A stretch of 64,000 nt of DNA, taken from Raillietiella orientalis. Taxonomy: Eukaryota. The notes beneath the pieces were generated by a model, which saw nothing but the letters and a program-made list of their open reading frames with translations, was not told the origin of the DNA and ran no database searches. Shown piece by piece: positions 10,341 through 64,000 of the stretch. The translations under genes and the position numbers were made by a program. Position 1 is the stretch's first letter. Every line of letters begins with the position of its first letter. Location of the stretch: NCBI GenBank assembly GCA_036172245.1, contig JAYWIR010000036.1, positions 1,054,001-1,118,000 on the forward strand. Reading direction: 5' to 3'.

Positions 10341-25588
<15,248 letters not shown>

Positions 25589-44499: not shown

Positions 44500-46272
44500 G
44501 AAGGCAGAGAAAGCAAAAGAACTCTCAAAAGATTTCCATCATCACAACTCCACATAGGAATGGTGGACTGGGCCACCTTATGCTGGAGAGGGTGGAGCGC
44601 GTCAGCTCCAGTTCAGAAGACTCGCCCTCGAGGCGAGATTATGGACCGCTCACCGGCGCAGCTCCTCGCGGAGAGCGCAAGACCGGCTGCGAGGGACTCC
44701 CATCCCTCCTCGTCACTAGCGATTGTGTTGCGGACGCCAACTCACACCATGCCAACCAGATGGTTATCATGGTGGAGATCAGGATCCCCTGCCTCCCCGT
44801 CAACTGCACTGCGTGGCTCCAGGAGCGAGGCTTCGCATGGGGATCGATGCACGGCGCGAGCGAGGCGGTGCACGCCTGCCTGCAGCGAGGCATCCACGAC
44901 CGCATGTCACTGGAGGGGGTCGTGTGCAACCCGCAGAAGATATACGGTGGGCCTCGTCACCCGCTTGCTCCAGCGCTGCCCTCCCTAAGGGGCGCAAGGG
45001 ACAGCGTAATCCCGGCAAGGTGGCAAGAGGAGCAGGAACTTCTGGGCAAGTGGACAACTCAGGAGGTGACGGACATTGCGACTCCGAGCGTCCCACCCCA
45101 ACGACTTGTACGCCGAGGAGACCTGCTCGGCGTTCCTCGGGAGGAAGTGAAGTAGCCCCCAGCACGCTGGAACAGTGGTGCCCTCCGGTTCAAGTGGCGC
45201 AATTTGCCGCTGCTGGTGGGGCACGGGGGAACCCCATGCCAAGCGCGCCTTCACAACTGGATACGGGGGAGCGAAGACGCTCAAAGTGCGACAGGTGCGG
45301 GGAGAAGGAGTGACCCTCCCGCACCTGCTGTTGGTTGGACTGTGCTGCCCTCCGAACTTTTCGGAATCGTCTCGCGCCCATCCTAGGAACTCTGGTGGGC
45401 GGCCCCAGGGACGTTTGGGAACGCCTCTTCGCGCGTGCCGCTCTGTCGCCAGCCTCGTCCCTCGCAGTTCTCTGCTGCGTACGCGGAATCGTGGCATCCT
45501 GGAACGCGGGAAGAAGGGGCCGAAATGGCAGGCACCCCCACCATCCACTGGGCGCGGATCTCCCTGAGAACCGCCTCGGGATTCCTGCACCTGGACACTT
45601 TCGGGACGGAACTTGCTAGCATCCTGAACAGGATGCAGAGGACGCCTGGCAGCGTACGTGATCCTTTCCTCGGTCCCCTCCTCCCTCCCCTTCCCGTGTA
45701 TAATTTCCCCTCTCCTGGTTTGTGTGCTTGTTTATTCTTTTTTCGTTTCCGTTTTCCCTTCCCCTACGCTGCCGAAGCGGACCTCGCCGGTCTGCGTACC
45801 GGTCCTCGGAAGGTTCTTTTGTGCGTGGTAGACGGTTCTACCGCAAAATGTATTTTTATTACTCCATTTAATAATATTTAATAATAAAGGCCCTGGCCAT
45901 AATCCGCTACAAAGCCCGCTTCGGAGGCTTTGCGGTTACGGTGGTCTCCACGCGTGGCACCAAAAAGAGTCGCGGTTTCGAATACTCCTACAGAAATGGA
46001 CGCAGTGCGTCGTTGGTTCCGCGTTCCTCCTGCAAGGTGACGCTGGTTGACCTACAACCATATTCGGGTGCGGCACTGGTAGCGGTTCACACTGGATGCC
46101 CTCGATGAAGGCAGGAACAATGGGAGTCGACCTCCGGGTGCCTCCAGGAATCAAGGACTGAGTTCCCCTCCGGTCGTGCCACGGAGAGAGGACCCCCCAC
46201 ACCGGAGGGACCCGTCCGGTTCGTTCAGATGGAGTAGGTGTGTAAACCAGCTCTCCATAACCGGGTGACAAT
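44500..46272 (+). mobile_element. LINE ORF2 C-terminal part plus 3' UTR (3' end interrupted by an insertion)
   Basis: HRNGGLGHLML, frameshifted CDRCGEKE-TLPHLL-VDC zinc finger, GGATGCAGAGGACGC, 3' structure at ~45768-45815. Confidence 0.75.
45903..46254. mobile_element. 352-bp insertion flanked by CCATAA direct repeats
   Basis: CCATAA at 45897-45902 and 46255-46260. Removing the insert restores AATAAAGGCCCTGG-CCATAA-CCGGGTGACAA, the family 3'-end motif. Confidence 0.6.
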
Positions 46273-51487: not shown

Positions 51488-53997
51488 TTACTTTTTTTTA
51501 AGACCACGAATGCTCGTTAGAAGAAAACTGCCTAAATTTTCATCCTGATAAACAAGATCTTTAACTAGGTCGAAAATACAAGATTATACACACCTGATAT
51601 CCCCATGACACATAAACATTTTTCTGAAGCTCGTCATCTGCACCAGACACTTTGATTAACACTGATTCCAGAGATAGAGAACCATCTGATAGCTGCTGAA
51701 TGGGCATATCTTTCAGTTTGCTGCCCTGACATGGAGCACATGATGGGAAAAGTGAAGAAAAACTTACTGTTTGATAATCTGGTAAATACGGTCTTGCATT
51801 TTGTTCACTGATCCTGAATCTTGTAAAGATACAGTAGATGTGAATCTGACTAAATGGCGAGTTATGCCCGTGTCCTTACATGCTTGATCCACATCTAGTA
51901 GTGTCATACCCTGACATAAAGATAATAACCATCCGGTCTCCAAGATACTTACCGAGTCCTTGACCATTAACACTCCATGCAAGATTCCTGGCTTGCCAGT
52001 ATAGAGGTTCACTTGCTTCAGCAGATCCACGCTAACATTAACAGGCAACTCTGGCTGCACCCCTATTGTCAGTGTTTCTCCATTTGCAGGCATGAAGCAT
52101 TCAACCCCAAACTCTTCAATGATCTTCTGACGAATAAAATCCATTTTGGATGCTTCTCCATGAACAAGCACCACATTGGAGGGCTCACAACTGCGTATGA
52201 GTTGCATGATGCCTTTAGCATCAGCATGAGCAGAAAAAGACATGTATTCCACACCCATCTTGACCTCAAGCACCTGCTTATTGTCCAGTTCAATTCTTTT
52301 AGCACCACTTAAGACCTTGTGACCCACTGTGCCCACAACACAATAGCCAGGCATGATGACTACATTGTTCTCGCCACCTGCCCACTTTTTAAACAACTGC
52401 AAGGAAAGACCACCATGCAGCATTCCTGGAGTGGCAAACACCACCATTGGGCCAGGATTATCAGCATATGACCGATCGAAGGGTTTAATGTGCTTGAAAT
52501 CAAACATGTTACGCTGCACAAAAGTGCGACGGATCTTCTGATTGGTCCATGTAATAAACAGCTTGTAGTATTGATTGGCCTAAACAATATGTGAGGAAAA
52601 AAAAAAAAAACGCTATGATTTACGAACCTTTTCTGTTAGCCCCAAAGCAAAGTAAATGGGCACAGTGAGATTCAGGCGCTCCCAATAAGTCTCCAGCAAA
52701 ATACATAACTCCTGTGCCCTTCCCAAGGCAAAAACGGGAATCAAAACTTTACCACCTTTCTCAACAGTGTCATGAACTTTCTTGAGGAAATCTCGCTCTC
52801 TGCAAATTTAAAGCTATATACTGCTGCAATCTTTGAATGTTGAAAAACCTGCAACGTTTGGAATCTCGGATTGTGGTAGCATAAGTAGATTCTGAGATGA
52901 GGACATTAGGATGACACTTATCAATCCAGGCTGCTCCAAGATGTCGATCTGGAGTCATATTGTAGTCGCCCTTTTGATGTGAATCATTTTTGAGGATCAC
53001 AAATTGAATGCACTTCTTACTGTATACACTACTGATTGACTGCCCACACGAATATGAAACATGGCTGCTCCAAGAACATGACCTGCATAATAAGCTTTAA
53101 TGTGCAACTCATTGTCCACCTGCACCACTTGATGCAGATTAACTGCAGTGACCTTCTTCATGCAATCTTTAATCATCTGGGAAGTGAAGAAATTGGTTTC
53201 TCCTTTCTTCTCCACAGCAACTTTCCGCATATCTTCCTGTCCACAGGAAATACTCTTTGAACAAATTATGAAGAATGACTCCTACCAACAAGATTGGACA
53301 GATAGCCTTGGTAGGGTGAGTCATGTAAATCGGTCCATTATATCCGATTATCTCTGTCATATAAGGCAGAGCACCACAATGATCCAAATGAAAATGGGAA
53401 ATAATAACACAATCCACAAATTCTGTCAAATTTCCTTCACAGATAAATGAGAAATCTGGAAATCTCCTCTAAAAACATCACATCATATAAGTCTCTTCAA
53501 TGATTTCGTCACTTACATACCTCATCTGAATAACCCATATGCATGCCACAGTCTAACATTACATTTTTGCCTTCAATTGTCAAAAGGAGGCAGCTTCTCC
53601 CAACATCCTGGCCTGCTCCTAATACCACATGAAGAGTCAGTTATAAGACACTGTCATGTTGGTGTTTGGTCACAATAAATACGCAATTGCCATCAAAAAT
53701 TTTCAACATTTTGCAAAGGACAACATGAAACATAACTTGCTATTTACTTCAAAACGTAAACGGTCTGAAACTATGAAGCGACTTTGGATTTCTCGTTTAC
53801 AAGGACTCTAGCACCTAATAATGAATAAAATCACGCATTACTTGTTACTCTAATGTTCGAAAGTAATAAGGTCTTGTTCCAGAGAATCTGTATATGCGTT
53901 TCATAAAAAAAACTGCGTGCCATTAACGTAATGAATGGAAGCAGTAAATATGTGAAGTTCTGAACTAACCCAAAGGAGTTATCTGGATTTCCAACAT
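51488..53997 (-). CDS. INTS11: Integrator complex subunit 11 (CPSF73-like metallo-beta-lactamase/beta-CASP endonuclease), 590 aa
   Basis: Exons (minus): 53997-53970, 53618-53521, 53468-53286, 53236-53021, 52970-52849, 52799-52628, 52579-51953, 51910-51768, 51720-51594, 51544-51488 (1773 nt, all GT-AG, phases consistent). Peptides [70 protein letters not shown] and the [15 protein letters not shown]-terminus are typical of INTS11 rather than CPSF3. Confidence 0.97.
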
Positions 53998-56900
53998 CTC
54001 GAAAACATATACGATATAACACAATTTCCTACATCACATCCACAGCCATGTACAAGCAGCCTCGATCCATAGGCGCCGAACGCTTGCTAGAATGCGAATG
54101 GACGGGAGTAAGGGTTACAAAATCACTATTCTTAAAGTTTAAAAAGAACGGGAATACTTTATGACAAATAACATGATTTCGAAATTTTCATTCCAGAATC
54201 GAACTTTCAAATAACGTCAGGTACCGTTCTATGATGATTTTAAACTTAAAATGTTGAATGCTTTTGCATAACTACAAACATAAGGGAGGCATACTGAGCA
54301 GTTAGTAAGTAAATTCTAGTTTAAGCTTTTGATGGTCAGTCAGCAAACCAAAAGAGAATCTAAATGAAAAGTAAGGACTGCAATGGTTTGAATGGTTCAA
54401 ATCGATTACACTATCATGGCTTAGCATACATGTTCACAGAAATAACCAATTTTTACTTCCTTTGATTTGCAATGATTTCCAGATTTTCACTTACAATAAT
54501 GAACAAATTACAAACTGGAGACTCGTTAAAGTTTAGGAATTTTTGATAAAAATCTAAGAAATATGGAACTGAAGCTTTGAGTGTTTGCATTTAAAAGGTT
54601 CCAGAGTCAAAAACTGCAGACTTTAGAAGACTTGAGGTAACTGATTTCAAAATATATGAATGATATAGACGAGACAAATCAGTGATGATGATAAGCAATG
54701 TCATTCGAGACAATTCCATGGTTTCTTTACTTTATAGAAATCTTTCTTTGATATAGAAAGCTTTTAGATTAATTACTCATTATTTCTCAACATTTTCATT
54801 ATCAAGAGTCAATTTCTGACAGTGTCACTAATTCTATCTTTGGATCCTGTAAGTTCACGGTTCACTGATGCAGAATTCTATTAAAAATGCTTGCCTTTTC
54901 AAGCTCATCGTAGATTTACGAGAACCAAGATTTAAAAAAATGTCAATAGTCATTCCTTTGTAATCACATGTTTAATTTACGTTTGTGGAAAGATACTAGA
55001 ATCGGTGTTGTTGTAGAAAATAAATTTCAAGGAGCTCTTTTTCCGAAGCAAAAGCATTAAATATGATAGGAGATATGAGAATGTATGCATAAATTAATCT
55101 GGGACCCAAATACTTAATTTAACGAAGAAGGAAAAATTAAAAGGAAAACGTCCGTTTTATCTAAGAATTCTCACACATTAAAGTTTCTACAGGTTCTTCG
55201 ATTTCCGTATCAATCACAAGAGGCAAAGCAATATTTTTTTTCTCTGTGCTGATCAGGATGATGTACAAATCGATAAGCAAATCCTCCTTGATAGTAAACA
55301 TCTGTAAAATAAATTTTGTCACGAATCAACAAAGTGAAAAGTTCTGATGCTAAATATTGAGATTGCCATGATCTTCACAATACAGAGACCATTTGAACAA
55401 TTTCCCTGGTGAATAGTATGCCTTATAGAGCAAAGAATTCAATAAAACAGTCGAAAAATTCTTTCGAAATGCATCAAGAAACGGAATCACCATATACACA
55501 AACCATCTAAAAAGTGTGATTACATCTCCGTCGCCACTCATAGATCCCAGTGCTTAAAGCGAACTTGTAGGAAATGCAATACAGATGTCACCATCCAGCA
55601 CATATTTGCCTCTAGTTCCTTTTTTAGAGGACGTTCACTAAGGAATGTTTAGCAAGTACGCTACTTCGACAGGCACACGACTGACACCTTTTGAATCTCC
55701 AGGAAAATGATAAGCAAAGTAGGTCTGAACAACACCGGTTAAAAAGGCATGATGGCGCTGAGATGTGAACACTCGATAGGTTTCAGATCAAACATCTTGC
55801 ATACAGAAGTGTGGGACTATTATCCGAAATTACATCCAAGGAAGGGAAGGAAGAAGATAATGAGTATCCTCATAACTTTATCTTTTCTTCAGAGACTTGG
55901 GGTACGCTTTGTAGTCATAAAGATAGGACGTGTCTGTCCCGGCCAAGAGCATCAGAGTCTGACGGCAGCGGACATTTTTGTCCACTCGACATTCTCGGCA
56001 GAACAGCAAACGAAGTCGGTTTCCAGTCCCCGCAAAAAGTGTCGAAACTAGGCAGTGGCTCATGTTTGCCACTATAGAAAAAGATGAGCTACAAAGAAAG
56101 ACACTGCTTATTCAACAGCGGTCTTCAATGCCTACATGTCACTTAATATGCACTATAATATAATGCACTACACGTCACTTAATATGCCAAGGCATGTATA
56201 TGAAAAAGCATGTACACGAGGGTTATTAACTAAATCTCGCAATTCAGAATCTGCTTCCAGAATTCAAAAACCAGTCGCAAACCATTTGGCAAAAGTCTTC
56301 TGCATGAACTCACGATTTGTGAAAGACGATCCGAGAGTCAGTTCAGAAAAGTATTAGAAGCTGAATTTCCATTCTCAACACAAAGAGGTCATCACTTGTC
56401 TTTAAATTCTTATTACTAAAAATTACTGTATTCACAAGGAACGGTTTGCTACTCAGCAAAACGTGATCGGCGTCGCCTTTCAGCATGCCTTCACCTAACA
56501 AAATTCGAACATGCTTTCATTTTCCTTTGACCAGTCCTCTGGCCCCAAGCAGCAACCATACATTTACGCTGAAATCGGTGAACGATACCCCCCAACTGTT
56601 GTGAAAAAATGGGGAAAACTGGGAGATGGGGCGGTAGGGATGGAAAGAAGGAAAGAGAGAATTCATGAGCAGCTTGAAAGACGAAACATGTGGTGGAAAA
56701 CGAAGAGCTAAGACAGCTTCGATCATTCCTACGAGCTTGCACTCGATTCTGTCAGAGTGGAAAATCGATAAAAAGCAGCCAGATTCGAAGAATGGAACAG
56801 CCCCTGACTTCCAAAAGCCATTAAAACTGGATTAAACGACTTTTGGTTTTATACGAACACATCTCTCAACATCAGGAGCTAAAGGAAACGAACAGTGGAA

Positions 56901-57129
56901 ACATCGCTAGGAATAGAAAGACCTAGACGCAATGCATTTATACATTGGAAAGAAAGCTGGTAGAAAGAACGACAGAATTGGAAGAGTTGGTTAAACATTA
57001 CTGTACACGAACAATGGACATGAAGGAATGGTCAACTTAAGAAACAAGAACACATGCTTACACGGTACTCTTCTGGGAACATCCAAAAGCAATGGCATTG
57101 TACCGCCAATACACAAAGACTGGAAGATT

Positions 57130-57159
57130 CATTGATAAAAGATGCATCTTTTATCAATG
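57130..57159. repeat. Perfect 30-bp palindrome
   Basis: CATTGATAAAAGATG|CATCTTTTATCAATG. Confidence 0.9.
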
Positions 57160-57849
57160 GGGAATTATCACAGAATCATCTTTTATAATCTTTTACAATC
57201 AACGCTCCGGCGTGACTGGGTGAAAACGAACGGCGGCGTTGAACATTTTTGCGGCGTCTGGACCGTTCCAACAACCATGTAAACAAGCATTTGCACAATC
57301 GGATCCGCTTAGGAAAGCAAACATCGGGCCTCTTAACGACCAGATTTCATCACGGGCAAAGAGGCAAGAGGTCACGATGAACTGGTGTGCTGTGATTTTC
57401 CGATCCACCCTGATCCACAAGCTCCAGCAGAAAGGTACCACCTCGGAAAGGAAAGGCAGCAACTCAACAGGGAGGAGAAATACAGCCACACAATCCGAAC
57501 AACACCAAATAGATACAACACATAGATGCGAAACTCCAAACATTTGAAAGCTGCCAACATCATTCCGACCCCCTAAACAGTCCACACGCATCCAGGAGTC
57601 CGGAAGATTCGACTTTGCGCCGTCCACAACCAAAACGAACGCTTCACCTGCACTGCAATTGAGATGCACGCGGCGGTCAGAGCGACGCGGTGCAATACAA
57701 AACAAGCTAACCAGAGCCAAAGGCTTTCAATGCGGACCCTTTCCTTAAGAGCGAAAAATACAGCCAACTAAGGCAATTAGCGAAAACACCAACACCAAAC
57801 GGCAGTGTTCGTAGGGGCCGATACGAAATCGAGTTCACAGCGGAGATGC

Positions 57850-58698
57850 AGCTGTTCTCTCCGTTGCGCAACAAAACCACCCAAAGCTGCCTCTCGCAGC
57901 CACCGAGCACCACAACACATCCTCGTCCAGCGCCCACCTCCACTCAAAATTCCTGGCAAGGTGGAAGTGAAGAAGAAACTTCTGGGTGCTTGGGAAACAC
58001 GGGAGGTGATGGACGCTGCAGCCTTCCAGTGTCCCACACCACGAACTTGTATGCTGGGAGAGCAGCTCGACATCACTCCGCAGGAGTTCAAGTGGCCTCT
58101 AGCATGCTGGAGTAGTGGCCCCTTTCCCTAAAGTGGCGGGAGTTGGCATTGCTGGTGGTGAATGGGGGAATCCCATACCTACACAACTCGACACGAGGGA
58201 GCGCGAACGCTCAAAGTGCGGGAGGTGCGGGAAGGAGACCCTCCTTTACCAGCTGGTAGACCTTGTTGCTCTCCAGCCCTTTGAAGTCGCCCACAGACGA
58301 CCTTGGAATCCTGGTATGCCATCCCAGGGACAATTTGAAGTGCTGAGTCTTCGCGCGTGGCGCACAACCTCCAGCCGCGTCCCACGCGGTTCCCTTGCCC
58401 TAGCAGAATGGCGGCGGCTGGGAAGGCAGGAAAAAAAGGTCCGAATGAAAGAGCCCTCACCCGCTGGTCAGGATCCTCCTGAAGACCGCCAACAGATGAC
58501 CCCTCCTGAGAAACATCTGCACCTATCTCGTCAGCATCCCGGACAGGATGCAGAGGACGCTTCGCAGCCAACTTCTATCCTTCCATGAGCAGAACGTTCC
58601 GGCCTTAGTTTATGTTTTGATTATTTGTGCTTTCCATACTCCCTGCTCCCCGTTCGCTGCCGAAGGGAACGAAGTCGGTCAGCGCATTGGTATTTGGC
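57850..58698 (+). mobile_element. LINE ORF2 C-terminal fragment, truncated by the inverted repeat
   Basis: KLLGAWETREVMDAA, QLDTRERERSKCGRCGKE and GGATGCAGAGGACGC are colinear with 45000-45650. The 3' structure starts at ~58655 and is cut at ~58699. Confidence 0.75.
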
Positions 58699-61600
58699 AC
58701 TACCGCTCTGGCCACACGCACGGTACCCGTGCGACCGCGGAACCCATCCACCTCCGGAAGGCGGAAGCATCCATACAGCTGCGCCGGTGATCCCCACCGT
58801 ACGCAAAGACCTTTCTTCTTCCACCACGTGAGGCGCCATCTTTGCCATCCGTTCTCCCGTGTCGCGGCCAGAAAAACAGGGCAGCGGCGGCCCCGGGATG
58901 CCGCCGGGTGGACGGACGTCCACCCGGCGGAGCGACGACGCGCGCCAAAAGACTCCACGCGCCCATCGGCGCGGCGGCGCCGAACATCGGGAGCCCACAC
59001 GCCGCATCCGCCGCAGAGGCGCCCTCCGCGCGGAGCCGCGACGCCACCGCCACTTGAACGCGCCGCGACCATCCCTGCACACCCCGAAATCGAAGGAAAC
59101 ACCCCTCTTGCAGCGGTCGATCATCAGCCTCCACCGCACGAACGACCCGCAGAGCACGCAGGAAGGCTCGGCCGACCGGCACACGGCGCCACTAGCGCCG
59201 TCGCCAAAAGACACGGGCGCAGCATCGATGCCGACCTGCCCGTCAGGTGCGGAGCCGCGAACCGCGCCGGCCCACCAGAAACGCGCGCGCCCCGCCAGCC
59301 TCCCCGAAGAACGTGCTCCGCTCACCCGGAGCAGCAACAGAAGGCGGATCCTCCCGCGAACACACCCGCCTGCACCCTTGGATACTTGCGGCGGCTAAGG
59401 CAGAGAGAGCGCGCAAGGGACGGCGAACGCCCTGCAGGCCGCATGGCCACCGAGCGCAACGCTCGGGGCGAGCGAAAGAGGAGTGCCGCCACATCGGAAG
59501 CCGCGCAGGTCCCAGCGACGGCGAGCGCGCGTCCGCCCGCCCTCCGTGCCTCCAGCCGTTAGCCGCCAGCCGCTGCGGCCCCCCGAGGAGCGACCCCCTC
59601 CTCCCGGTCGGCCGACGTCCGGCAAGAAGACTCCCCCGGGGAACGAGCTGCGGCCGTCCGCGTACGGAGGAAGACGAAAGCGTCGCTGCCAGCCGCCGCC
59701 CAGCCGGGCATCCCCGCCCGCGCTGGCGAACGGACGCCGGACGTCGCGGCGGCGACTAGACCGCGGGAGAGCCCGCGGGCGCGCCGCCGAGCTTGGTCAG
59801 CGCCCTCGAAGCGGGTCCGCTCTGACGGAGGATGTTCCGACGCGGTTCCCGTCCATCCCGCTCGCCCGCGGCCCGAGAGAAGCGCCCCGTCGCGGCGCCC
59901 GCCTCCCCAAACGCAGAGATCGCGGGTGAGGGAGCGCCTGCCCCACGCCGCGACCACTGCGCGACGCGCCGACCGTGGAGGCGAACGGCGCGGTGGCCGC
60001 TCACCCGCCGGATAGGGACCTCGGGCGCGCGCGGTACGCTGATCTGCGAGCCAACGGACACACGCATCCGTTCCCGCCCAACGAAAGGAGGAATCCCCAT
60101 TTTCCCCTCCCCCACCCGCCACCGCCTTCCGACCCCGCCGACAACCGGCTGACAACTGCCGCGCCTCCTCGGCTGCCGGACGACGATGCAGCGACCCGCC
60201 GGCAGCTGACGAGCAGCTCGCGGGCCGGTCAGACGGAGGTGGAGAAGCGCAGGCGGCCAAGCAAAGTCGGAGGACAAAGGCACAGCCCTCGGGAGCGAGG
60301 CCGAGGCGCGTCGGCGGCAGCTAGTCGCGTGCATCAACTCCCCAGGACGTCGTCTGCTTGACCTCCACACACCACCTTGTCCCGTGTCCTCGTGCGCGGT
60401 CGGACGACCCCGGGCAGCTCCGGCTGACCCGGCGAGGTCAGTCACGCGCGGCGGCAGAGGTCAGCAGGAAGGAGCCGGCCGTTACCTTCGCTTGGGGGCG
60501 CCGTCGGGCGTTGAGTAAGAGCGATCCCGGGAGTGCCACTCAGGAGAGCGCACGATGACCACTTCCGGCGAACGCCGGGAAGGAGGCGGCGGGCGCCCCT
60601 ATCGGGTGACTGCGCGGCGCGATCCCGCGCTGACGACGCGGCGGCGAGCCGAGTGCTCGGATCGTCGTCGCCGCGATCCACATTCCCGTCCTCTCGCCCG
60701 ACGGAGGGCGGACTCCCGTGCGGGGGAGCGCCTGGGACTGCTGCATGTGTGCCGGTCGGCCCGAGGCGGGGCAGGTCACCACCGTCCATTCGGCCGTCGT
60801 TCTGCAAGCAGCGAGGACTCCAGCGGTACGCGAGAGACTTACGCTCCGCCGTGGACCGCCCGGGTCGCGCACGCGCGCACCACCGAACGCAGCGGAAGTT
60901 GCCGAAGAGAGGACGACGTCGCCTCGCGCGGGAGTTCCCCCCTCCCTCCCTCCCTCCTCCTTCCGCCTGTCCGGGAGCGGCAGGAAACGTCCGTCACGCA
61001 GGCTGCGGCGAGCGGGGCGCCTCCGACAGGAAGGCGGGCGGGAGGCAGGGAACCTTGGCAACGCGTCTCCGCCGCCGGTGCCGCGGCGGATGCCGGCCGC
61101 CCCGGCAGACCCACGGATTATCGCAGGCCGCGGAGGGCGCTCGGCGCGGGAGAAGAGGGGCGTCTCCCAGGGAGATAACCGCTTATCGCGTCCAGGGAAC
61201 GCGCCGCGGGTGACGCGCTTATCGCCCGCGCAGTCGGCAGCGACCTCTGTCGAGTGCCGTTCCGCTAGCAGGGAGACGGTCCTCCAGCAGACGGTCCGCC
61301 CGCTGCTGACATTCTCCTCTGCGGGATGGACCCCTGGGAAGGTCCTCCTGGGGACGCCCACAGAGAGGGCGCACCGTAGCGGACGGCATAGCGGCGCGTC
61401 TCCCTGCTAGCGGAACGGCACTCGACAGAGGTCGCTGCCGACTGCGCGGGCGATAAGCGCGTCACCCGCGGCGCGTTCCCTGGACGCGATAAGCGGTTAT
61501 CTCCCTGGGAGACGCCCCTCTTCTCCCGCGCCGAGCGCCCTCCGCGGCCTGCGATAATCCGTGGGTCTGCCGGGGCGGCCGGCATCCGCCGCGGCACCGG

Positions 61601-63968
61601 CGGCGGAGACGCGTTGCCAAGGTTCCCTGCCTCCCGCCCGCCTTCCTGTCGGAGGCGCCCCGCTCGCCGCAGCCTGCGTGACGGACGTTTCCTGCCGCTC
61701 CCGGACAGGCGGAAGGAGGAGGGAGGGAGGGAGGGGGGAACTCCCGCGCGAGGCGACGTCGTCCTCTCTTCGGCAACTTCCGCTGCGTTCGGTGGTGCGC
61801 GCGTGCGCGCGGGGGTCCACGGCGGGCGTAAGTCTCTCGCTACCGCTGGAGTCCTCGCTGCTTGCAGAACGACGGCCGAATGGACGGTGGTGACCTGCCC
61901 CGCCTCGGGCCGACCGGCACACATGCAGCAGTCCCAGGCGCTCCCCCGCACGGGAGTCCGCCCTCCGTCGGGCGAGGACGGGAATGTGGATCGCGGCGAC
62001 GACGATCCGAGCACTCGGCTCGCCGCCGCGTCGTCAGCGCGGGATCGCGCCGCGCAGTCACCCGATAGGGGCGCCCGCCGCCTCCTTCCCGGCGTTCGCC
62101 GGAAGTGGTCATCGTGCGCTCTCCTGAGTGGCACTCCCGGGATCGCTCTTACTCAACGCCCGACGGCGCCCCCAAGCGAAGGTAACGGCCGGCTCCTTCC
62201 TGCTGACCTCTGCCGCCGCGCGTGACTGACCTCGCCGGGTCAGCCGGAGCTGCCCGGGGTCGTCCGACCGCGCACGAGGACACGGGACAAGGTGGTGTGT
62301 GGAGGTCAAGCAGACGACGTCCTGGGGAGTTGATGCACGCGACTAGCTGCCGCCGACGCGCCTCGGCCTCGCTCCCGAGGGCTGTGCCTTTGTCCTCCGA
62401 CTTTGCTTGGCCGCCTGCGCTTCTCCACCTCCGTCTGACCGGCCCGCGAGCTGCTCGTCAGCTGCCGGCGGGTCGCTGCATCGTCGTCCGGCAGCCGAGG
62501 AGGCGCGGCAGTTGTCAGCCGGTTGTCGGCGGGGTCGGAAGGCGGTGGCGGGTGGGGGAGGGGAAAATGGGGATTCCTCCTTTCGTTGGGCGGGAACGGA
62601 TGCGTGTGTCCGTTGGCTCGCAGATCAGCGTACCGCGCGCGCCCGAGGTCCCTATCCGGCGGGTGAGCGGCCACCGCGCCGTTCGCCTCCACGGTCGGCG
62701 CGTCGCGCAGTGGTCGCGGCGTGGGGCAGGCGCTCCCTCACCCGCGATCTCTGCGTTTGGGGAGGCGGGCGCCGCGACGGGGCGCTTCTCTCGGGCCGCG
62801 GGCGAGCGGGATGGACGGGAACCGCGTCGGAACATCCTCCGTCAGAGCGGACCCGCTTCGAGGGCGCTGACCAAGCTCGGCGGCGCGCCCGCGGGCTCTC
62901 CCGCGGTCTAGTCGCCGCCGCGACGTCCGGCGTCCGTTCGCCAGCGCGGGCGGGGATGCCCGGCTGGGCGGCGGCTGGCAGCGACGCTTTCGTCTTCCTC
63001 CGTACGCGGACGGCCGCAGCTCGTTCCCCGGGGGAGTCTTCTTGCCGGACGTCGGCCGACCGGGAGGAGGGGGTCGCTCCTCGGGGGGCCGCAGCGGCTG
63101 GCGGCTAACGGCTGGAGGCACGGAGGGCGGGCGGACGCGCGCTCGCCGTCGCTGGGACCTGCGCGGCTTCCGATGTGGCGGCACTCCTCTTTCGCTCGCC
63201 CCGAGCGTTGCGCTCGGTGGCCATGCGGCCTGCAGGGCGTTCGCCGTCCCTTGCGCGCTCTCTCTGCCTTAGCCGCCGCAAGTATCCAAGGGTGCAGGCG
63301 GGTGTGTTCGCGGGAGGATCCGCCTTCTGTTGCTGCTCCGGGTGAGCGGAGCACGTTCTTCGGGGAGGCTGGCGGGGCGCGCGCGTTTCTGGTGGGCCGG
63401 CGCGGTTCGCGGCTCCGCACCTGACGGGCAGGTCGGCATCGATGCTGCGCCCGTGTCTTTTGGCGACGGCGCTAGTGGCGCCGTGTGCCGGTCGGCCGAG
63501 CCTTCCTGCGTGCTCTGCGGGTCGTTCGTGCGGTGGAGGCTGAGGATCGACCGCTGCAAGAGGGGTGTTTCCTTCGATTTCGGGGTGTGCAGGGATGGTC
63601 GCGGCGCGTTCAAGTGGCGGTGGCGTCGCGGCTCCGCGCGGAGGGCGCCTCTGCGGCGGATGCGGCGTGTGGGCTCCCGATGTTCGGCGCCGCCGCGCCG
63701 ATGGGCGCGTGGAGTCTTTTGGCGCGCGTCGTCGCTCCGCCGGGTGGACGTCCGTCCACCCGGCGGCATCCCGGGGCCGCCGCTGCCCTGTTTTTCTGGC
63801 CGCGACACGGGAGAACGGATGGCAAAGATGGCGCCTCACGTGGTGGAAGAAGAAAGGTCTTTGCGTACGGTGGGGATCACCGGCGCAGCTGTATGGATGC
63901 TTCCGCCTTCCGGAGGTGGATGGGTTCCGCGGTCGCACGGGTGCCGTGCGTGTGGCCAGAGCGGTGGT
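58699..63968. repeat. Large near-perfect inverted repeat: arms 58699-61278 and 61397-63968, 118-nt spacer
   Basis: The ORF track is mirrored (e.g. 59756-60445 minus = 62222-62911 plus; 58842-59057 plus = 63610-63825 minus). I saw only a few substitutions and small indels (net 8 nt, clustered ~60690-60870). Confidence 0.97.
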
Positions 63969-64000
63969 TAGCATCGTTGCGTTCGTGAAGCGGATGATCA

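Follow-up and report, generated by a model that had tools for sequence, protein, structure and literature searches.

A 5.3-kb GC-rich palindrome in the tail of a retroposon-like repeat of Raillietiella orientalis, possibly a captured inverted dimer

A 64,000-nt stretch of the Raillietiella orientalis genome assembly (GCA_036172245.1, contig JAYWIR010000036.1, positions 1,054,001 to 1,118,000 of the forward strand), hereafter the window, in whose own coordinates all positions are given, carries near its end a 5.3-kb palindrome (58699–63968) made of two near-identical arms separated by a short spacer. What is directly seen is the palindrome itself, the GC-rich and non-coding nature of its arms, a dispersed repeat whose interruption coincides with the arm boundary, and, to the right, flanking DNA similar to the tail lost by this repeat copy. 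The reading that we prefer, although tentatively and with slightly less than even confidence, is that of a genuine and young palindromic insertion, in which an inverted dimer, copied by snap-back or from a hairpin, was captured at a break in the tail of the retroposon-like repeat. Snap-back copying, capture at a break and a young age of the insertion are what we infer from these observations.

Structure of the palindrome

A repeat search of the 64-kb window covered 58699–63968 with three collinear inverted pairs, and the pairing of the arms is far above chance expectation. In the same window we found neither further inverted repeats of at least 100 nt nor a third copy of the arm. As defined by gapped alignment, the left arm occupies 58699–61278 (2580 nt, GC 0.72, CpG observed/expected ratio 1.20), and the right arm, which is its reverse complement, occupies 61397–63968 (2572 nt). 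Between them lies an asymmetric spacer of 118 nt (61279–61396; GC 0.695); no strand is assigned to these parts or to the smaller features inside them. The spacer is weakly self-complementary, a property that is marginal, being equalled by 67 of 2000 shuffles, and it has no match to the arm above chance. An exact metagenome scan for a 30-nt word of the spacer returned 0 matches.

When the left half was aligned, with gaps, to the reverse complement of the right half, the arms were 99.6% identical over 2572 aligned columns. They differ by three mismatches (58701 T/C, 58724 T/C and 59123 A/C) and by five small gaps totalling 8 nt, and the initial annotation of this DNA, which had described a palindrome with near-identical arms of 2.58 kb at this place, was therefore accurate. 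Two of the three substitutions fall in the outermost 26 nt of the arm (58699–58724), and if the insert begins at 58700–58702, that at 58701 may not belong to the true arms. Every gap corresponds to bases absent from the right arm, namely, in left-arm coordinates, CT at 60691–2, C at 60829, T at 60845, G at 60858 and GGT at 60863–5. All five indels are thus contained in a patch of 175 nt (60691–60865, left-arm coordinates), with four of them inside 37 nt (60829–65).

This geometry brings in the most serious rival explanation, according to which a fold-back long read lengthened the end of the contig in a region of 70–77% GC that is hard to sequence, the last 32 nt being junk or adapter. In this case, the true genome would continue past the spacer, and the right arm would be the same DNA read on the other strand. 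The criteria given for fold-back artefact reads in the description of Breakinator are a second segment less than 200 bp away, on the opposite strand, and a breakpoint near the midpoint of the read, such reads being near-symmetric (PMC12870357). Here the turn-back of 118 nt is below this limit and leads onto the opposite strand, as a matter of the geometry of the assembly and not of reads, and the arms are of equal length. Moreover, incorrect and missed base calls have been reported for nanopore inverted duplicates (PMC7229812), and the clustered deletions confined to the second arm match missed calls of this type. The right arm also ends 32 nt before the end of the window, which, by our arithmetic, would be a coincidence of about 5 in 10,000 if the edges of the window were independent of the palindrome. 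On the other side, the GC-rich spacer is arm-like, which, by composition only, speaks against an adapter origin. Further points against a read artefact come from the flanks.

A repeat cut at the arm boundary

The DNA to the left of the palindrome belongs to a dispersed repeat family of about 0.8–0.9 kb. The left part of the interrupted copy spans 57951–58699 (+), and it was compared, by blastn and MAFFT, with the other copies at 45010–45905 (+), 38092–37310 (−), about 42480–41700 (−) and 6999–6760 (−). The flank copy tracks the family up to GGCA (58696–58699), where the homology ends. By contrast, the four other copies extend about 95 nt beyond this point, starting with GGTTCC..., and three of the four have AATAAA and then a GC-rich stem at their end, which is a retroposon-type 3′ end. 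The break in the repeat and the arm boundary agree to within 1–3 nt, and the opening 35 nt of the arm clearly fail as a continuation of the repeat, with an anchored sum score of −22 to −26 over the four copies. Such an agreement is not expected of an artefact, as the end of a read falling at random in 2.6 kb would come this close to the break with a probability of about 0.2% (our arithmetic).

It had been proposed that the arm starts abruptly inside the 3′ untranslated region (UTR) of a long interspersed nuclear element (LINE). The abrupt start stands, since the arm boundary cuts a dispersed repeat whose 3′ end is of the retroposon type, and from its sequence the identity of the repeat as a LINE 3′ UTR is plausible, although no reverse transcriptase open reading frame (ORF) was found near the copies. 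In fact, in the 43.4–58.8 kb region Pfam matches were obtained for 4 of 121 ORFs, and all four belong to the gene INTS11. These 121 ORFs were taken from 124 listed; the three left out are arm ORFs whose frames, with ends different by 3–6 nt, were scanned against Pfam together with the other ORFs of the arm. Because no reverse transcriptase ORF stands beside the copies, the family may be non-autonomous. The other copies, at least four in number, have about the same 5′ start, and several of them are crowded into a 60–64% GC region at 37–46 kb.

On the far side of the palindrome, the segment 63966–64000 (+), which begins with GGTT AGCAT..., is the putative resumed tail of the interrupted copy. 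In an anchored alignment to the four repeat tails, the register starting from 63966, which abuts GGCA|GGTT, gave a sum score of 8 over the four tails, directly after the breakpoint. For comparison, in leave-one-out controls the true tails scored 4, 12, 14 and −2 against the other three copies. The sum score of 8 was equalled by 34 of 5000 shuffles and by 11 of 5000 35-mers of the window, and in a three-copy version of the test the corresponding numbers were 68 and 23 of 5000. Allowing for the choice of the register, we estimate p ~0.01–0.03 for the likeness to the lost tail, which is moderate evidence and suggests that the interrupted repeat resumes beyond the right arm. A repeat resuming on the far side would make the palindrome one inserted block of about 5266 nt (58700–63965).

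This result bears on two of the rival explanations. With regard to the artefact, the 35 nt past the arm resemble the lost tail of the repeat, and not the reverse complement of the left flank; because a folding read does not rebuild the far side of the target, a read fold-back is disfavoured. With regard to a fold-back inversion or inverted duplication of local DNA in place, its hallmark is a junction between inverted copies in which the spacer is short and asymmetric, as found here (PMC10766183, PMC7999016). However, such an event would leave unexplained both the match of the outer edge to the break in the repeat and the repeat likeness of the far flank. A duplication in place would involve native DNA having one flank as its natural continuation, whereas here both flanks appear to be parts of one repeat copy (over 35 nt on the right), and at the boundary GC and the CpG observed/expected ratio jump from 0.57 and 0.67 to 0.70 and 1.2, respectively. 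We consider an origin in place very unlikely.

No significant target-site duplication was found. The best candidate, TTGGCA/TTAGCA for an element spanning 58700–63967, matches in 5 of 6 positions, and chance would yield about 0.46 duplications of this quality among the 100 boundary pairs compared, with a right flank of 32 nt. This candidate is an imperfect duplication that could be put forward for a third alternative, namely a non-autonomous foldback-type DNA transposon, with terminal inverted repeats (TIRs) of 2.58 kb and a middle domain of 118 nt, inserted by a transposase into the tail of the repeat. Such an element is in line with a self-contained block that has inverted ends and lies within a different repeat, and the layout described for foldback elements, long TIRs around a short non-coding middle domain (PMC4079207), is present here, with arms of 2580 and 2572 nt around the 118-nt spacer. 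By contrast, no target-site duplication of fixed length is recognisable, those of Tetris measuring 8–10 bp (PMC4079207). In addition, the foldback TIRs described in PMC3573991 and PMC4079207 are internally repetitive, whereas the present arms are devoid of tandem sub-repeats, Tandem Repeats Finder having returned just three arrays of 1.9–2.0 copies in 54000–64000. A second copy or a solo terminus of the presumed element was not found in the 64-kb window either. Taken together, these data make a transposon improbable, though less so than a duplication in place.

Non-coding arms of host-type DNA

The GC content of the left flank is 0.57, and the arms are distinguished from it by their much higher values reported above. 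On its + strand, the left arm is skewed, with A exceeding T and C exceeding G, and the skew weakens toward the centre of the palindrome. No recognisable protein had been noticed in the GC-rich arms, and our searches led to the same result: none of the 19 arm ORFs matched Pfam at E ≤ 0.01, no codon-phase periodicity of GC was detected in the arms, and the ORF that crosses the joint between arm and spacer has no relative in the protein collection (6097 candidates scored). Rfam gave 0 matches both when the whole window was searched at the gathering level and when 57500–64000 was searched at E ≤ 1, and a tRNA search was equally negative (0 found).

The dinucleotide signature of the arm lies inside the host range, with a mean δ* of 0.130 to 22 host segments, compared to 0.117 ± 0.047 among the segments themselves. 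A bacterial or otherwise foreign origin of the arms was therefore considered and rejected, on the basis of this host-like signature and of the lack of a codon-phase GC signal. Biased conversion from arm to arm, as the source of the high GC, likewise found no support: the spacer equals the arms in GC richness, so their composition need not come from conversion between them. Palindromes of the sex-chromosome type have long, gene-bearing arms that are kept alike by arm-to-arm gene conversion, whereas the arms described here measure 2.6 kb and contain no genes.

Some small features were observed inside the arms. A GC-rich local hairpin of 30 nt, 93% self-complementary, is found at 58901–58930, with its mirror at 63737–63766, about 200 nt from the outer end of each arm. 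A second small stem is located near 58718–58732, with one of the three substitutions between the arms in its loop. Close to its inner end, the left arm has three TTATCGC motifs spread over about 100 nt (61118–61225), and their mirror, GCGATAA, occurs at 61450, 61486 and 61551 (61450–61557); each of the two words is present four times in the window, three of them at these sites. The CGATA core of the motif may resemble binding sites of fly insulator or promoter factors.

A possible origin by snap-back copying and capture

In our preferred reading, the template would be about 2.7 kb of GC-rich, non-coding, host-type DNA, consisting of one arm and the 118-nt spacer, which was made into an inverted dimer. 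The matching compositions of arm and spacer (GC 0.72 vs 0.695) are what a single template would lead one to expect. The end of a strand would fold back about 118 nt inward and prime the copying of its own strand (snap-back or fold-back priming); the substrate could be a resected or hairpin-capped DNA fragment, or a cDNA undergoing self-primed second-strand synthesis. The resulting arm-loop-arm molecule would then be end-joined into a chromosomal break, with no duplication of target bases, and in this way the 5.27-kb block (about 58700–63965) would end up in the 3′ tail of an old retroposon-like copy. That hairpin-capped and snap-back intermediates replicate into inverted dimers is established (PMC10766183; PMC7999016). 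As for the capture of such a dimer at an unrelated site, we infer it ourselves.

Several observations weigh against this reading. Firstly, all five indels are deletions in one arm, with four of them within 37 nt, a pattern for which errors of base calling or of the consensus look a better match than mutation. Secondly, the window ends 32 nt past the right arm, which suggests the end of a contig, where fold-back read artefacts gather, and the right flank on which the resumption of the repeat is judged amounts to 32–35 nt. Thirdly, the other three registers tested for this flank were not significant (equalled by 392, 1657 and 2500 of 5000 shuffles, and by 91, 693 and 1157 of 5000 window 35-mers, respectively). 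When the right flank was aligned without an anchor, it hit the breakpoint in one of the four copies, fell 4 nt off in a second one, and elsewhere in the other two. Finally, a source copy of the arm was not found in the 64-kb window.

On balance, we consider it probable that the structure is real, by whichever of the routes discussed here it arose, and rather unlikely, although likelier than any of the other rivals taken singly, that a fold-back read produced it. The initial annotation is partly supported. A recent inverted duplication or foldback element had been proposed, and the structure is indeed present in the assembly, but the evidence points to an inserted block and not to a duplication in place. 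A library artefact had also been contemplated there, and it remains a serious rival with the window ending so close to the right arm, although a simple read fold-back does not predict an inserted block.

A more specific possibility is that a single snap-back event, either captured at a break or self-primed during retroposition, provides a one-step route to hairpin loci, or that the palindrome is the first observed member of a new kind of foldback mobile element, one whose long arms are unique sequence and which does not duplicate its target site. We regard this as speculative and rather improbable, slightly less probable than the transposon considered above.

Hairpin RNA and cruciform potential

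The expectation that a transcript of the palindrome would form a long double-stranded hairpin was confirmed in silico. Folded as RNA, the central 876 nt reached −1024 kcal/mol, with a z of −66, and a read-through transcript would form a near-perfect duplex of 2.6 kb. The long double-stranded hairpin typical of hairpin RNA (hpRNA) loci is thus present, as judged by in silico folding only. The arms of hpRNAs derive from their target genes. The arms of the present palindrome match no gene in the searches of their ORFs and in the protein and family searches, and therefore no target can be named; moreover, the neighbouring INTS11 is transcribed away from the palindrome. Fly hpRNA loci that produce endogenous small interfering RNAs (endo-siRNAs) are known (PMC10317233, PMC10292708), and a functional hpRNA gene yielding endo-siRNAs would be compatible with any of the readings in which the structure is real, as it concerns function and not origin. 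We nevertheless judge such a function to be most improbable, the least probable of the explanations considered.

The palindrome had also been regarded as cruciform-prone, which is doubtful. Longer spacers reduce hairpin and cruciform formation; in eukaryotes, no fork stalling is reported at a 52-bp spacer, and a pair of 6-kb repeats with a 280-bp spacer was stable in wild-type yeast (PMC7999016). Because the spacer is 118 nt long, cruciform extrusion and hairpins formed during replication are less likely here.

Other features of the window

The nearest gene identified is INTS11 (Integrator subunit 11), at 51564–53468 (−), whose exons contain metallo-beta-lactamase, Beta-Casp, RMMBL and IntS11_C domains. 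Its introns are about 50 nt long, and one exon is unusually long, with 271 codons. Farther to the left, a P-type cation ATPase gene is located at 16489–21926 (+), with two long exons of about 450 codons and matches to E1-E2_ATPase, Hydrolase and Cation_ATPase_C. Finally, a perfect palindrome of 30 nt was observed at 57130–57159, in AT-richer DNA to the left of the repeat that flanks the large palindrome.

Significance and relation to known systems

If the reading that we prefer is true, the palindrome arrived as a finished block and did not grow in place, which bears on the birth of long inverted repeats and of hairpin-RNA loci. If the one-step snap-back route is true, any non-genic DNA could be turned at once into a long hairpin locus that could supply a small interfering RNA pathway. 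If, instead, the structure is an artefact, it is a warning that fold-back reads can mimic biology where a contig ends in GC-rich DNA.

The palindrome shares traits with four known systems. Like the fold-back artefact reads described in PMC12870357 and PMC7229812, it shows a turn-back of less than 200 bp, near-equal arms and deletions in one arm, next to the end of the window. Unlike them, it has its outer boundary at a biological breakpoint, and its far flank resembles the remainder of the interrupted repeat. With the Drosophila hpRNA loci described in PMC10317233 and PMC10292708 it has in common a long inverted repeat that would give a double-stranded RNA hairpin if transcribed; in those accounts, however, hpRNAs silence particular selfish genes, namely X-linked meiotic drive loci, whereas the present arms match no gene.

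The foldback transposons FB of Drosophila, Tetris and Galileo, as described in PMC4079207 and PMC3573991, also consist of long inverted arms around a short non-coding middle and insert as a unit. The present arms differ from theirs in being 2.58 kb of unique sequence at 72% GC, with neither sub-repeats nor a convincing duplication of the target, and no other copies were seen in the window.

The closest parallel to the proposed mechanism is offered by the inverted dimers that arise from hairpin-capped or snap-back DNA, through fold-back priming at short inverted repeats or, in the model put forward for yeast, by origin-dependent inverted-repeat amplification (ODIRA) (PMC10766183, PMC7999016). 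In these systems, as in the palindrome, a short asymmetric spacer separates two near-identical inverted arms, and a single copying event suffices. The dimers described in these sources are duplications of DNA at its own site or on fragments of chromosomes, and homologous recombination integrates them, whereas the block reported here, unlike the ODIRA-type dimers, seems to be foreign to its surroundings, lying inside an unrelated copy of a repeat.

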